Of a stretch of DNA of 64,000 nucleotides, positions 37,643-43,553 are shown one piece after another (position 1 is the first letter of the stretch; the number at the start of each line of letters is the position of its first letter). Both the position numbers and the translations under genes were made by a program. A model generated the notes under the pieces. The model was not told the origin of the DNA, searched no databases, and saw only the letters and a program-made list of their open reading frames with translations. The stretch lies in NCBI RefSeq assembly GCF_003334405.1, contig NZ_QOWM01000002.1; one strand, 5' to 3'. The DNA is from Escherichia coli (GTDB lineage Bacteria > Pseudomonadota > Gammaproteobacteria > Enterobacterales > Enterobacteriaceae).

Positions 37643-39979
37643 ATGAAGCAAATTCGTCTGCTGGCGCAGTATTATGTTGACCTGATGATGAAGTTAGGTC
37701 TGGTGCGCTTCTCAATGTTGCTGGCGCTGGCCCTCGTCGTTCTTGCCATTGTGGTACAAATGGCGGTAACCATGGTGCTGCATGGTCAGGTCGAAAGCAT
37801 TGATGTTATTCGTTCTATCTTCTTTGGTTTGCTGATTACGCCGTGGGCGGTCTACTTTCTATCGGTGGTCGTCGAGCAACTGGAGGAGTCACGACAACGT
37901 CTGTCACGGCTGGTGCAAAAACTGGAGGAGATGCGCGAGCGCGATTTGAGCCTCAACGTTCAGTTAAAAGATAATATTGCCCAGCTAAATCAGGAAATTG
38001 CCGTTCGTGAAAAAGCGGAAGCAGAACTGCAGGAAACCTTCGGCCAACTGAAAATTGAAATCAAAGAGCGCGAAGAGACACAAATTCAGCTCGAGCAGCA
38101 ATCCTCATTCTTACGTTCCTTCCTTGATGCTTCACCCGACCTGGTTTTTTATCGTAACGAAGATAAAGAGTTTTCCGGCTGTAACCGCGCGATGGAGCTG
38201 CTGACCGGAAAAAGCGAAAAACAACTGGTTCACCTGAAACCTGCTGATGTTTACTCACCGGAAGCCGCCGCAAAAGTCATTGAAACCGATGAAAAAGTGT
38301 TCCGTCATAATGTGTCACTGACCTATGAACAGTGGCTGGATTACCCGGACGGGCGCAAAGCCTGCTTTGAAATCCGTAAAGTGCCGTACTACGACCGCGT
38401 GGGTAAACGTCACGGTTTGATGGGCTTTGGTCGCGACATTACCGAGCGTAAGCGGTATCAGGATGCGCTTGAACGGGCCAGCCGCGACAAAACGACGTTT
38501 ATCTCCACCATCAGTCACGAATTGCGTACACCGCTGAACGGTATCGTCGGTCTGAGCCGCATTCTGCTGGATACCGAACTCACCGCCGAGCAGGAAAAAT
38601 ATCTCAAGACCATCCATGTTTCGGCCGTCACGCTGGGGAATATCTTTAACGATATTATCGACATGGATAAGATGGAACGGCGCAAGGTCCAGCTTGATAA
38701 TCAACCGGTTGATTTCACCAGCTTCCTTGCCGATCTGGAAAATCTCTCCGCATTGCAGGCGCAACAAAAAGGATTGCGCTTTAACCTGGAGCCGACGCTG
38801 CCATTACCGCATCAGGTCATTACCGACGGGACGCGTTTACGGCAGATCCTGTGGAACCTCATCAGTAACGCCGTCAAATTCACCCAGCAAGGCCAGGTTA
38901 CCGTGCGCGTGCGCTACGATGAAGGCGATATGCTGCATTTTGAAGTGGAAGACTCTGGTATCGGCATTCCGCAGGATGAGCTGGATAAAATTTTCGCCAT
39001 GTATTACCAGGTGAAAGACAGTCATGGCGGTAAACCTGCCACCGGCACCGGTATTGGTCTGGCCGTTTCTCGTCGTCTGGCGAAAAATATGGGCGGCGAT
39101 ATTACGGTTACCAGCGAACAGGGCAAAGGTTCAACCTTTACGTTGACGATCCACGCACCGTCGGTAGCAGAAGAGGTCGATGATGCGTTTGATGAAGACG
39201 ATATGCCTTTACCGGCGCTGAATGTGCTGCTGGTGGAAGACATTGAACTGAACGTGATTGTTGCGCGTTCTGTGCTGGAAAAATTAGGTAACAGCGTTGA
39301 TGTCGCCATGACCGGCAAGGCGGCGCTGGAGATGTTTAAACCGGGCGAATACGACCTGGTGTTGCTGGATATTCAGTTGCCAGATATGACCGGGCTGGAT
39401 ATCTCTCGTGAACTGACGAAACGTTATCCGCGCGAGGATTTACCGCCGCTGGTGGCCTTAACCGCTAACGTGCTGAAAGACAAACAAGAGTACCTCAATG
39501 CTGGAATGGATGATGTGCTGAGTAAGCCGCTTTCTGTTCCGGCGCTAACCGCGATGATCAAGAAATTCTGGGATACCCAGGATGATGAGGAGAGTACGGT
39601 GACGACAGAAGAGAACAGTAAATCAGAAGCATTGCTCGATATTCCCATGCTGGAACAGTATCTCGAACTTGTAGGACCGAAGCTGATCACCGACGGGTTA
39701 GCGGTGTTTGAGAAGATGATGCCGGGCTATGTCAGCGTGCTGGAGTCGAATCTGACGGCGCAGGATAAAAAAGGCATTGTTGAGGAAGGACATAAAATTA
39801 AAGGTGCGGCGGGGTCAGTGGGGTTACGCCATCTGCAACAGCTGGGTCAGCAAATTCAGTCTCCTGACCTTCCGGCCTGGGAAGATAACGTCGGTGAATG
39901 GATTGAAGAGATGAAAGAAGAGTGGCGTCACGACGTAGAAGTGCTGAAAGCGTGGGTGGCAAAAGCCACTAAAAAATGA
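37643..39979 (+). CDS. arcB: Aerobic respiration control sensor kinase ArcB (hybrid histidine kinase)
   Basis: 778 aa: TM, PAS, HisKA (SHELRTPLN), HATPase, receiver, HPt domains. Confidence 0.96.
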   Translation: MKQIRLLAQYYVDLMMKLGLVRFSMLLALALVVLAIVVQMAVTMVLHGQVESIDVIRSIFFGLLITPWAVYFLSVVVEQLEESRQRLSRLVQKLEEMRERDLSLNVQLKDNIAQLNQEIAVREKAEAELQETFGQLKIEIKEREETQIQLEQQSSFLRSFLDASPDLVFYRNEDKEFSGCNRAMELLTGKSEKQLVHLKPADVYSPEAAAKVIETDEKVFRHNVSLTYEQWLDYPDGRKACFEIRKVPYYDRVGKRHGLMGFGRDITERKRYQDALERASRDKTTFISTISHELRTPLNGIVGLSRILLDTELTAEQEKYLKTIHVSAVTLGNIFNDIIDMDKMERRKVQLDNQPVDFTSFLADLENLSALQAQQKGLRFNLEPTLPLPHQVITDGTRLRQILWNLISNAVKFTQQGQVTVRVRYDEGDMLHFEVEDSGIGIPQDELDKIFAMYYQVKDSHGGKPATGTGIGLAVSRRLAKNMGGDITVTSEQGKGSTFTLTIHAPSVAEEVDDAFDEDDMPLPALNVLLVEDIELNVIVARSVLEKLGNSVDVAMTGKAALEMFKPGEYDLVLLDIQLPDMTGLDISRELTKRYPREDLPPLVALTANVLKDKQEYLNAGMDDVLSKPLSVPALTAMIKKFWDTQDDEESTVTTEENSKSEALLDIPMLEQYLELVGPKLITDGLAVFEKMMPGYVSVLESNLTAQDKKGIVEEGHKIKGAAGSVGLRHLQQLGQQIQSPDLPAWEDNVGEWIEEMKEEWRHDVEVLKAWVAKATKK

Positions 39980-40091
39980 CCCCGGCTAGACCGGGGTGCG
40001 CGAATACTGCGCCAACACCAGGGAAATCTTGGCTGCGCCGTAAATTATTATGATGAGTTACAAGGGCACAGCACTGTTTTTCAGGCCGCAC
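39971..40091 (-). ncRNA. arcZ: ArcZ (RyhA/SraH) Hfq-dependent sRNA, antisense to the arcB 3' end
   Basis: Minus-strand sequence GTGCGGCCTGAAAAACAGTGCTG...CCCCGGTCTAGCCGGGGTCATTTTTT matches the ArcZ sequence as I recall it and ends in an intrinsic terminator hairpin plus U-run. Confidence 0.85.
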
Positions 40092-40208
40092 GCAGTTAAG
40101 ATAGCAAAACTTAAATGATTTGTTACATGAATCAGTTAAATGTGTGATGCGTACCATTTTTATTAAAAAAATTAATGTGTTTCAGTCAATTGCGAAAGGA
40201 TGATCACA

Positions 40209-40862
40209 ATGAAGAAAATTGGCGTAATTCTGAGCGGATGCGGCGTCTATGACGGTTCTGAAATTCATGAAGCGGTGTTGACGTTGTTAGCTATTTCACG
40301 CAGCGGTGCGCAGGCGGTCTGCTTTGCACCGGATAAGCAGCAGGTTGATGTTATCAACCATTTAACTGGCGAAGCGATGACGGAAACGCGCAATGTGCTG
40401 ATTGAAGCGGCACGAATAACGCGCGGTGAAATCCGTCCTCTGGCCCAGGCCGATGCCGCTGAACTGGATGCGTTGATTGTGCCGGGGGGGTTTGGCGCGG
40501 CGAAGAATTTAAGCAATTTTGCCAGTCTTGGTAGCGAATGCACCGTTGACCGTGAATTAAAGGCGCTGGCACAAGCGATGCATCAGGCCGGAAAACCGCT
40601 TGGTTTTATGTGTATTGCCCCGGCGATGCTGCCGAAAATTTTCGATTTCCCGCTGCGTTTGACCATCGGTACTGATATCGATACCGCAGAAGTGCTGGAA
40701 GAGATGGGCGCGGAGCATGTGCCGTGTCCTGTCGATGATATCGTGGTTGATGAAGACAATAAGATTGTCACCACCCCAGCATATATGCTGGCGCAGAACA
40801 TTGCAGAAGCGGCGAGCGGCATTGATAAGCTGGTTTCCCGCGTGCTGGTTCTGGCTGAATGA
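40209..40862 (+). CDS. elbB: DJ-1/PfpI-family protein ElbB
   Basis: 217 aa [21 protein letters not shown]...; start moved to internal ATG. Confidence 0.9.
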
Positions 40863-41587
40863 GTAAAAGCCGCTTAACGGTGTTTAGTTTCGTTCGCCGT
40901 TTTCTTTTGCGGTTAATGGTTGTCCTCGCCGTTTTCTGGGGCGGGGGCATCGCGTTGTTTAGCGTTGCGCCTGTTCCCTTCTCAGCGGTAATGGTCGAGC
41001 GACAGGTCAGCGCCTGGCTGCATGGCAATTTTCGTTACGTGGCACATTCTGACTGGGTCAGTATGGATCAAATCTCGCCGTGGATGGGACTGGCGGTGAT
41101 TGCCGCAGAAGATCAGAAATTTCCTGAGCACTGGGGCTTTGATGTCGCTTCCATTGAGAAAGCCCTGGCGCACAACGAGCGCAATGAAAACCGTATTCGC
41201 GGTGCTTCAACGATTTCTCAACAGACAGCCAAAAATCTCTTTTTATGGGATGGGCGTAGCTGGGTTCGAAAAGGGCTGGAAGCCGGATTAACGCTGGGGA
41301 TAGAAACGGTCTGGAGCAAAAAGCGTATCCTGACGGTTTACCTGAATATCGCCGAATTTGGCGACGGTGTGTTTGGCGTCGAAGCTGCGGCACAACGTTA
41401 TTTCCACAAACCCGCGAGCAAACTTACCCGGTCGGAAGCTGCATTACTGGCAGCTGTATTACCTAATCCACTTCGTTTCAAAGTCTCCTCGCCATCGGGC
41501 TACGTGCGTAGCCGTCAGGCGTGGATTTTACGGCAGATGTATCAGTTAGGCGGTGAGCCGTTTATGCAACAACACCAGCTGGATTAA
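40859..41587 (+). CDS. mtgA: Monofunctional biosynthetic peptidoglycan transglycosylase
   Basis: 242 aa with N-terminal TM and GT51 motifs (…[13 protein letters not shown]…). Confidence 0.93.
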
Positions 41588-42216
41588 GCTTCGCGCGAAG
41601 TGAGGGCCAGCGTTTTGCTCTCACGAGGTTGCAGATCTTTCTGCAGGGCAATAGCCAGCGCCGGTTGGGCGATAAATCGTTTCCATAACCGCTCTTGCTT
41701 ACGCAGACAACACCACTTCGACCAGGTCGCCAGTGGAATCAATGTGCTTTCACCAATGTTGTCGCAGACGACCGGGATAACCTCTGACTCACTGATGCGG
41801 TGACAGAGGATATTCTGCGGCTTCAGCGACATCGTCACGATACGGTTATCCTGCAAATAACGCTTCAGCTGTTTCAGTAGCTGGCGCAGTTGTGCAATGT
41901 CTTCTTCGTAACGGCATTGTTCAGCAAATTCGGTCAGCGTAATGGAAGGCTTGCCGTCAAAATCTGCAATCACATCGTAGACATAACCGGTTCCGCAATC
42001 CGTCTCAACGGTACCGTGATAGCGCGGTATTCCACTCCAGTCTTTTAACCGGCGACCAAGATGCGCGTAGTACTTTAACTCACGGCGGATCTCTTTATCG
42101 CCACCATCGCCACGATGGTAGACAATCTTGATACAGCGTTGGGCATCTTCCGGATGCGCATAACATTTCCGATGTCTTCCGGTGCCCAGGGGACTTTGTT
42201 CAGATAAGCGAATCAT
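41584..42216 (-). CDS. yrbL: PhoP-regulated protein YrbL
   Basis: 210 aa [24 protein letters not shown]...; start moved to internal ATG; stop overlaps mtgA stop. Confidence 0.85.
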
Positions 42217-42266
42217 GCCATCTCCTGGAAATATTTTCTGACGATCTCCAGTATGGTCGATTAACT

Positions 42267-42283
42267 TAAACAAAACCTAAACA
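42267..42283. promoter_or_regulatory. PhoP box (direct repeat TGTTTA-N5-TGTTTA on minus strand) upstream of yrbL
   Basis: Minus-strand TGTTTAGGTTTTGTTTA about 50 bp upstream of the yrbL start. Confidence 0.7.
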
Positions 42284-42429
42284 ATGCCTCTTAAGGTTTT
42301 CTTAAGGTTCTTCTGAAAGTGAAAAGCGCACAAAATGTACAAATGACGTTGATTGAGAACGATTTCAGTACGTGATTTTCTTATTGTCGGGGGGAGTTTG
42401 AAGGGAGTTGTATGTCAAAGTGATGAAGA

Positions 42430-42702
42430 TTAATCTTCATCAAAACCAGAATTAAAGAGGGCGATAACGGCGGCCAGTGCTTCCTCTTCCTGTGGACCGG
42501 TCGCTTCAACTTCAATCTGCCGTCCTTTGGCAGAATCCAACATCAGCAGCGCAATAACGCTGTTGGCTTCAGCCTCGGTGCCTTCGTCATTACGTAAGAG
42601 CACTTCAGCGTCAAAACCCTGCATTAATTCAAACAGCTTCATTGCAGGCCGGGCATGCATGCCCAGCTTGTTTGTGATTTCAACAGTTTGCTTGACGGTC
42701 AT
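42430..42702 (-). CDS. ptsO: Nitrogen-related phosphocarrier protein NPr
   Basis: 90 aa HPr-like protein. Confidence 0.93.
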
Positions 42703-43553
42703 GGTTTACGTTTTTCCAGCGTACGATGGCGTGACTGGACGTTTTTACCGCGCGAGCGGAAGTAGTCTGCCAGTTGCTCTGCAATATACACCGAACGGTG
42801 CTTCCCGCCGGTACAACCAATGGCGACCGTCAAGTAGCTACGGTTGTTGGTTTCCAGCATAGGTAACCATAGCTCAAGATAGCTTCGCGTCTGGTAGATA
42901 AAATTGTGTACTTCTGTGTGGCGGTCGAGGAACGCGGCGACAGGTTTATCAAGACCTGTCATTGGACGCAGTTTCGGATCCCAGTGCGGGTTCGGCAAGA
43001 AGCGCACGTCAAAGACGTAATCTGCATCGATAGGGATACCGTGTTTGAAGCCGAAAGACTCAAAGACCATGGTCAGTTCGCGTTCACGTTTACCCAGCAG
43101 ACGGGTACGCAGCATTTCAGCCAGCTCGTGAACGGACATTTCTGAGGTATCGACAATCAGATCCGCTCGCGAACGCAGAGGCTCCAGCAAATCGCTTTCT
43201 TTGTCGATAGCACTTTCCAGCGACAGGTTTTTGCTGGAAAGCGGATGCAGTCGGCGCGTGTCACTGTAACGACGAATTAAGGTATTACGGTCGGCATCCA
43301 GGAACAGGAGTTGCGGTGAGAAAGCGTCAGGCAGGTTACTCATCGCCTGTTCGAATATTTCTGGTGACTCCGGCATATTACGAACATCAATGCTGACGGC
43401 GGCAGAAATCTCGCGATCGGCCAGGGTTCGAGCCAGATCGGGTAACAACACTACGGGAAGGTTATCCACGCAGTAAAAACCCATATCTTCCAGCGCACGC
43501 AGGGCGACAGATTTACCTGAACCTGAACGTCCGCTGACGATCATCAGTACCAT
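42699..43553 (-). CDS. rapZ: RNase adaptor protein RapZ (YhbJ)
   Basis: 284 aa, Walker A GRSGSGKS at N-terminus. Confidence 0.93.

Follow-up and report, generated by a model that had tools for sequence, protein, structure and literature searches.

Results

The convergent ends of mtgA and yrbL

In the analyzed window, the whole stretch of 64,000 nucleotides of Escherichia coli DNA, the genes mtgA and yrbL converge tail to tail on a single TTAA tetranucleotide (Table 1). Direct reading of the positions 41580–41589 gave t-g-g-a-T-T-A-A-g-c, and the tetranucleotide is flanked as CAGCTGGA-TTAA-GCTTCGCG. According to the ORF list the mtgA stop codon TAA occupies the positions 41585–41587 of the plus strand, and the yrbL stop codon TAA is the reverse complement of the positions 41584–41586 (TTA) on the minus strand. 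The preliminary description had claimed that the two stop codons overlap within TTAA and leave no intergenic space. The sequence and the ORF list agree with it to the base, and not a single nucleotide separates the two genes. At its other end yrbL is annotated to start at the ATG at 42216, while the mechanical ORF list begins at an upstream TTG at 42273.

Table 1. Features of the mtgA–yrbL region, in window coordinates.
Feature	Position	Strand	Evidence and remarks
elbB CDS	40209..40862	+	ORF list, RefSeq; upstream of mtgA, 4-bp stop/start overlap ATGA at 40859-40862
mtgA CDS, monofunctional peptidoglycan glycosyltransferase, 242 aa	40859..41587	+	ORF list, RefSeq, TIGR02070 (E = 8e-87)
Rho region peak, yrbL-strand transcription, antisense to mtgA	~40969	-	mapped from K-12 3349699; ~615 nt past the yrbL stop
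Stem-loop UCCACGCCUGACGGCUACGCACGUAGCCCGAUGGCGAGGA of the yrbL-strand RNA	41486..41525	-	fold, MFE -19.9 kcal/mol, no U-tract; antisense to mtgA codons 210-223
TTAA tetranucleotide with both stop codons	41584..41587		sequence, ORF list, RefSeq annotation
yrbL CDS, PhoP regulatory network protein, 210 aa	41584..42216	-	ORF list, RefSeq, NF007671 (E = 5e-120)
Rho region peak, mtgA-strand transcription, antisense to yrbL	~41860	+	mapped from K-12 3348808; ~273 nt past the mtgA stop
PhoP box TGTTTA-GGTTT-TGTTTA (TGTTTAGGTTTTGTTTA) upstream of yrbL	42267..42283	-	sequence; Salmonella counterpart TCGTTTAGGTTTTGTTTAA (PMC3335776)

As judged from family models and from conservation across genera, both stop codons are true, conserved ends of proteins, and a misread stop was excluded for both genes. 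The NCBIfam equivalog model NF007671 covers YrbL from end to end (residues 1–210 of 210). The model TIGR02070 covers residues 13–231 of MtgA, and a tail of 11 residues remains beyond the profile. In the other 14 loci that carry yrbL this tail, GGExFMxxxxLx*, is equally long; across all 80 other Enterobacteriaceae mtgA loci the GGExFM motif is conserved, and the match nearly always extends to residue 241 or 242. The YrbL C-terminus ...LTSREA* is common to Escherichia and Salmonella, and in the latter the genes do not overlap; the variants SSREA, SSRKA and SSRQA are found in other genera.

These results leave next to no probability for the overlap being an artefact of annotation or reading, with one of the ORFs ending earlier or not being a gene. 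Apart from the general miscalling of ORF ends, such a reading could draw on the last 11 residues of MtgA lying outside TIGR02070. Against it stand the complete match of YrbL to its own equivalog model, the conserved length and motif of the MtgA tail, and the retention of LTSREA even in the non-overlapping Salmonella pair. A sequencing error is opposed by the 3187 genomes which are at least 99% identical across the 71-nt junction sequence. The artefact explanation is thus effectively refuted.

The 71-nt junction was present at an identity of at least 90% in 5415 of the 5426 complete E. coli genomes. With a 1.6-kb junction query all 5426 genomes gave matches, 5414 of them with a coverage of at least 80%. 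The RefSeq annotation of strain TUM9754, which is identical across the 1.6-kb query, has the same 4-bp overlap, as does that of K-12 MG1655 (yrbL 3348452..3349084 on the plus strand, mtgA 3349081..3349809 on the minus strand). The overlap is still annotated in three more divergent variants of the junction, with identities of 93.0%, 95.8% and 98.6%.

From its stop/start overlap with mtgA, elbB probably leads the transcript whose end lies within yrbL. A second same-strand 4-bp overlap of the ATGA type joins the rapZ stop and the npr start at 42699–42702. Between arcB and elbB lies the small RNA ArcZ (Rfam RF00081, 120.8 bits; 39984–40091, minus strand), which converges on arcB and has its published 3' end at window position 39972. 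In K-12 arcZ (3350577..3350697) overlaps the 3' end of arcB (from 3350689), forming a tail-to-tail pair of an sRNA and a coding sequence about 1.5 kb from the TTAA. The greA leader (Rfam RF01769, 127.5 bits) was found at 61736–61857 on the plus strand, upstream of greA.

Overlap length and other convergent pairs in the window

Overlaps of 1–3 nt between convergent stop codons are impossible: TAA, TAG and TGA cannot share one to three terminal bases with TTA, CTA and TCA, and four nucleotides (YTAR) are therefore the minimum. The tetramers TTAA, CTAA, TTAG and CTAG have been described as the minimal convergent overlap, with a jump in the length distribution at four (Lillo and Krakauer 2007, PMC2174442). 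The same study counted 58 convergent overlaps in E. coli, and across 58 genomes its Tables 2 and 3 list 1890, of which 1218 are at least 5 nt long, leaving 672 of the 4-nt type. It also pointed out that in convergent overlaps any terminator has to sit within the coding sequence of the partner.

The mtgA–yrbL junction has all the features of this minimal overlap, i.e. two coding genes on opposite strands, a YTAR tetramer, and stop codons that are real and conserved. Read from the annotation, mtgA and yrbL are the only overlapping pair among the nine intact convergent pairs of the window. Eight of the others have gaps of 41–185 nt; the ninth gap, the 59 nt between nanQ and its neighbour, was taken from TUM9754 alone, and the window differs in that stretch. 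A tenth convergent junction, formed by IS1 and pseudogene fragments, was set aside from the count. The overlap is thus unique locally, yet it belongs to a well-known class and is in this respect ordinary.

Outside the region 23658–29764 the window is 99.4–99.8% identical to TUM9754. Within that region the window has about 6.1 kb, and TUM9754 about 1.9 kb, in which IS1 is present twice along with fragments of genes, namely of a PDDEXK nuclease and a MobH relaxase pseudogene.

Search for intrinsic terminators

Scanning of the region 40100–42800 on both strands found no intrinsic terminator near the junction. The scan produced two sites, compared to the 3.2 expected by chance, and the nearest stem (41349–41364) lies inside mtgA. 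The RNAs downstream of each stop codon folded no better than shuffled sequences (z = -0.7 and -0.9), and an Rfam scan of the whole window gave nothing at the junction, its only findings being ArcZ and the greA leader. Also the G+C-rich hairpin with an A-tract and a T-tract that a bidirectional intrinsic terminator would place at the stops was absent. All these analyses agree with the earlier claim that there is no room for a terminator between the convergent genes.

History of the junction across Enterobacteriaceae

The stop codons of mtgA, yrbL and npr were located in 80 mtgA loci from species-representative genomes of Enterobacteriaceae, the window being the 81st. A yrbL gene adjoins mtgA in 15 of the 81 genomes (the window and 14 loci), and the remaining 66 have no yrbL homologue adjacent to mtgA. 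The distance between the two genes is -4 in nine of the 15 genomes, and it is realized by three different tetramers: TTAA in Escherichia, Citrobacter amalonaticus and Pseudocitrobacter, CTAA in Superficieibacter, and TTAG in Siccibacter turicensis. In C. koseri and Pseudescherichia vulneris the gap is -26; there the C-terminal sequence of YrbL differs and the ORF continues to the next stop. Gaps of +1, +6 and +74 were found in Pluralibacter, S. colletis and Salmonella, respectively. In Salmonella the homologous protein ends (...QLN* and ...LTSREA*) are parted by 74 nt of REP-like hairpins. This spacer, GCCGGATGGCGACG...CGTCTTATCCGGC in the S. enterica subsp. diarizonae locus, includes two to three such hairpins (-32.9 kcal/mol), in agreement with the Salmonella intergenic region described earlier for this junction (PMC3261920).

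In the genomes lacking an adjacent yrbL, mtgA converges directly on npr. The distance between these two genes is -4 in four genomes, 0 in two and +1 in nine, while most of the others have gaps of up to 242 nt and one has a gap of 1510 nt. The -4 tetramers are TTAA in three Leclercia loci (L051, L053 and L069) and TTAG in Silvania (L063), and tight mtgA–npr junctions are also present in Kosakonia, Buttiauxella and Cedecea loci. As the -4 state occurs across genera both with yrbL and with npr, the mtgA 3' end without a spacer is old and recurrent and has had two partners. The distribution fits -4 being the point at which the loss of a spacer halts, since further loss would alter a protein. In the Citrobacter freundii group, which has no yrbL at this site, mtgA is followed by a REP-like sequence (GCCGGATG...CTTATCCGGCC).

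A cassette origin of yrbL was considered and rejected. A TTAA at either end of yrbL (npr-TTAA-[yrbL]-TTAA-mtgA) would point to a target-site duplication, or to a microhomology deletion leading to the npr-TTAA-mtgA arrangement of Leclercia. The scenario was ruled out because only Escherichia has TTAA at the npr stop, where the other genera with yrbL have TAAg, TAAa or TAGg.

The npr stop codon (42430–42432) is centred in a perfect 20-nt palindrome, GATGAAGATTAATCTTCATC (window 42422–42441, minus strand), which is likewise confined to Escherichia. In a divergent Escherichia genome (L004) the sequence is GACGAAGATTAATCTTCGTC, in which two compensating changes preserve the hairpin at the npr stop, and an unrelated genome (L021) has a palindrome of its own, GATGAGGACTAAGTCCTCATC, at the same position. 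The palindrome is possibly the 3'-end hairpin of the rpoN–npr operon.

Published transcript ends and Rho-dependent regions

The available transcript evidence comes from K-12 MG1655, a strain different from that of the window. The 61-nt sequences printed with the published 3' ends match the window exactly, one of them spanning the stem-loop, and this fixes the coordinates. The dominant Term-seq 3' end of the yrbL strand, K-12 3349181/3349182, lies antisense to mtgA and was detected under each of the three growth conditions (Adams et al. 2021, PMC7815308). By the exact sequence match it corresponds to window 41487/41486 on the minus strand, 97–98 nt beyond the yrbL stop.

Rho-dependent regions have been reported on both strands (PMC7815308). 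The region at K-12 3349699 (plus strand), antisense to mtgA, had a Rho score of 14.6 (p-value 3.3e-54), with 280 and 21 reads without bicyclomycin and 613 and 672 reads with it. The region at 3348808 (minus strand), antisense to yrbL, had a Rho score of 3.2 (p-value 2.3e-5), a modest score resting on few reads (85 and 38 without the drug, 46 and 66 with it). The yrbL strand is C-rich and G-poor (C/G 2.1–2.5) 250–350 nt beyond its stop, upstream of the Rho region, and on the mtgA strand the C/G profile reaches up to 1.5 only. In addition, the ExcludonFinder study (PMC12288877) names yrbL–mtgA in its set of 165 convergent MG1655 excludons, all of them detected in 50% or more of 58 RNA-seq samples.

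The preliminary description had proposed that the transcripts must read into each other's 3' ends, and the K-12 Term-seq, bicyclomycin and excludome data, which had already been published, bear this out. In K-12 read-through increases when Rho is inhibited (PMC7815308), and the Term-seq ends, the Rho regions and the excludome list place the two transcripts across each other as in an excludon. The claim can be refined in one respect: Rho stops transcription inside the partner gene, so that there is no indefinite run-on (PMC7815308).

The same data weigh on the possibility that a cryptic bidirectional intrinsic terminator lies in the coding sequences beside the TTAA and leaves little true antisense read-through, which is very improbable. 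Predicted rho-independent terminators inside the partner have been reported for about 20% of the E. coli genes with convergent overlaps (PMC2174442), and short palindromes do occur beside the junction, e.g. CTTCGCGCGAAG at 41590–41601. However, neither strand has a hairpin followed by a T-run near the junction, the mapped 3' end lies 97 nt into mtgA at a stem-loop without a U-tract, and bicyclomycin raises read-through on both strands (PMC7815308).

Transcripts reading through from the rpoN–npr operon, rather than those started at the yrbL promoter, could account for the yrbL-strand 3' end; the published list has no dominant Term-seq 3' end in the interval from npr to yrbL (PMC7815308). Another dominant 3' end, found in all three conditions, lies 129 nt into the yrbL ORF (K-12 3348581, window 42087, minus strand). 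With a Rho score of 1.2 it is not Rho-dependent (PMC7815308), and it could represent premature termination or processing within yrbL.

Stem-loop at the yrbL-strand 3' end

The mapped yrbL-strand end coincides with the last paired base of the stem-loop at 41525–41486, which has the structure (((.((((....((((((....))))))....)))).))). The sequence continues with AGACUUUGAA, which has no U-tract. In Rho-dependent transcripts the precise steady-state end has been found just 3' of stem-loops without a U-tract, which block 3'–5' exonucleases (Dar and Sorek 2018, PMC6061677). Here as well the steady-state 3' end lies directly 3' of a stable stem-loop lacking a U-tract, and it fits the protective stem-loop model of that study. 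The stem-loop is encoded antisense within the conserved transglycosylase domain of mtgA, and must therefore be maintained via synonymous sites.

For 74 Enterobacteriaceae genomes, the 40 nt corresponding by homology to the stem-loop were folded in antisense and compared. The mean energy was -14.6 kcal/mol in genomes with a gap of at most 8 nt (n = 32) and -10.3 to -10.4 kcal/mol in those with a larger gap (n = 42; Mann-Whitney p ~1e-5), both the measure and the gap threshold having been picked after the data were seen. The difference held at gap thresholds from -4 to 45, and gap and fold energy were correlated (Spearman rho 0.60, p 2e-8). On the sense strand of the same segment no difference between tight and spaced junctions was detected (one-sided p 0.19, two-sided p 0.31). 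When 600 nt of mtgA were scanned in 40-nt steps of sequence, the antisense-only signal was confined to the 40-nt segments covering the stem-loop; the last 45–51 nt of the gene gave a signal on both strands. Phylogenetic regression (PGLS, Brownian motion) on a neighbour-joining tree of a single gene, constructed from the rest of mtgA, gave a slope of -4.6 kcal/mol for the absence of a spacer (p 2e-4) and of -5.0 for the presence of yrbL (p 3e-4).

Many members of the two groups share an identical peptide, and among these it is synonymous sites that differ (e.g. TAC versus TAT for Tyr), though in some lineages the peptide itself differs, as in Buttiauxella (GYVRQRQQWI). Buttiauxella is also an exception in having a gap of +1 and yet weak hairpins. 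The stem-loop embedded in mtgA of Salmonella, where a REP spacer is present, is weak (-11.9). For the inner helix, 80.7% of the cells are paired in species with tight junctions and 68.5% in species with spaced junctions; when the structure is mirrored onto the sense strand, the values are 68.3% and 69.2%, respectively. As this difference in pair counts is modest, the comparison is kept as suggestive: it suggests that the embedded stem-loop is more stable in species without a spacer, an association that may be new.

A further-reaching interpretation is that, where no spacer parts mtgA from its neighbour, yrbL or npr, the neighbour's 3'-protecting stem-loop has come to be encoded antisense to mtgA codons 210–223 and is maintained by the choice of synonymous codons, and that it decays where a spacer with a REP or terminator hairpin exists, as in Salmonella. 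This is put forward tentatively, as an idea somewhat more likely to fail than to hold. If it is true, one gene's coding sequence also houses the 3' UTR structure of its opposite-strand neighbour, and synonymous sites are constrained by the RNA structure of that neighbour's transcript, which bears on analyses of codon usage and dN/dS near convergent gene ends.

PhoP control of yrbL and possible interference with mtgA

The gene yrbL has been well studied as a PhoP-activated and PmrA-repressed gene, and in Salmonella it has both a PhoP box and a PhoP-dependent start site (PMC3335776). Given the canonical PhoP box in the window, transcription of yrbL, and with it the antisense read-through into mtgA, would depend on PhoP and Mg2+.

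This raises an alternative in which the pair is a regulatory excludon: yrbL transcription, switched on by PhoP at low Mg2+, would lower mtgA through collision of polymerases or cleavage of the duplex by RNase III, and the overlap itself would have been selected. Cell-wall glycan synthesis would then be tied to the PhoP regulon. The listing of the pair in the E. coli excludome (PMC12288877) speaks for this, although the ExcludonFinder calls rest on overlapping coverage alone, which follows automatically when coding sequences overlap. The PhoP box and the known activation by PhoP and repression by PmrA (PMC3335776) point in the same direction, as do the yrbL-strand RNA, which extends antisense over mtgA for 97 nt or more, up to about 600 nt, and the persistence of the -4 state in several genera. 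In the literature, however, neither anticorrelated expression of the two genes nor a PhoP-dependent change of mtgA was found, and the read counts under standard conditions are low on both strands (PMC7815308). Furthermore, Salmonella, where the PhoP control of yrbL has been studied best, has a REP-like spacer between the genes, and in 66 of the 81 genomes no yrbL homologue adjoins mtgA. A regulatory excludon is accordingly considered unlikely.

Discussion

The evidence is best explained by a minimal 4-nt YTAR overlap of two genuine genes, without an intrinsic terminator, in which Rho ends both transcripts inside the partner gene, and this reading is held with considerable confidence. The genes could not be packed more tightly without altering a protein, and the overlap is old and stably inherited. 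Since there is neither a spacer nor an intrinsic terminator, each RNA polymerase would pass the TTAA and transcribe the antisense strand of the partner gene, where Rho would terminate the RNA because it is untranslated. The elbB–mtgA transcript would in this way end about 270 nt into yrbL, and the yrbL-strand transcript within about 600 nt into mtgA. The latter is probably trimmed back by exonuclease to the stable stem-loop without a U-tract in the mtgA antisense, which would produce the discrete 3' end about 97 nt beyond the yrbL stop. The overlap, its conservation and the lack of an intrinsic terminator are shown here, and the 3' end and the Rho regions by published data; we infer that an exonuclease does the trimming, that the stem-loop protects the end, and that the arrangement has no dedicated regulatory purpose. 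The conservation of the -4 state across genera, together with the link between stem-loop and spacer, could mean that the arrangement has been selected rather than merely tolerated.

The junction is already known on three levels, namely from the reference annotation, as a member of an established overlap class, and through the published overlap of the mtgA and yrbL transcripts. It therefore has little weight as a discovery; its value is rather that of a clean and well-documented example of convergent genes without a spacer, whose transcripts are terminated by Rho inside the partner. The same junction has been solved differently in relatives, by a REP spacer in Salmonella and with another partner gene in Leclercia.

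Comparison with known systems

The geometry is the same as in the class of 4-nt tail-to-tail overlaps (PMC2174442), with a YTAR tetramer holding one stop codon per strand and both proteins unaltered, and there is no difference in kind. What is added to the class here is the history of the mtgA–yrbL junction across Enterobacteriaceae.

As in convergent excludons (PMC12288877), the yrbL and mtgA transcripts overlap at their 3' ends. The hallmark of an excludon, however, is mutually exclusive expression through interference or RNase III, while this pair is known from transcript overlap, which comes automatically with overlapping coding sequences.

Bidirectional terminators and REP elements (Wang et al., preprint 10.1101/2022.10.23.513370; Harris et al., preprint 10.64898/2026.03.23.713779) serve the same need, the stopping and stabilizing of converging transcripts, and the REP-like 74-nt spacer of Salmonella at the mtgA–yrbL junction is a solution of this type. 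The E. coli junction differs from these systems in having no spacer, no hairpin followed by a U-tract, and no REP.

The junction also resembles the protected ends of Rho-dependent transcripts (PMC6061677, PMC7815308) in its discrete 3' end, its stem-loop without a U-tract, and the read-through sensitive to bicyclomycin; the C-rich stretch further downstream on the yrbL strand may be another point of resemblance. Unlike in the systems described in those studies, the stem-loop of the yrbL strand is located not in a 3' UTR but in the antisense of mtgA codons 210–223.
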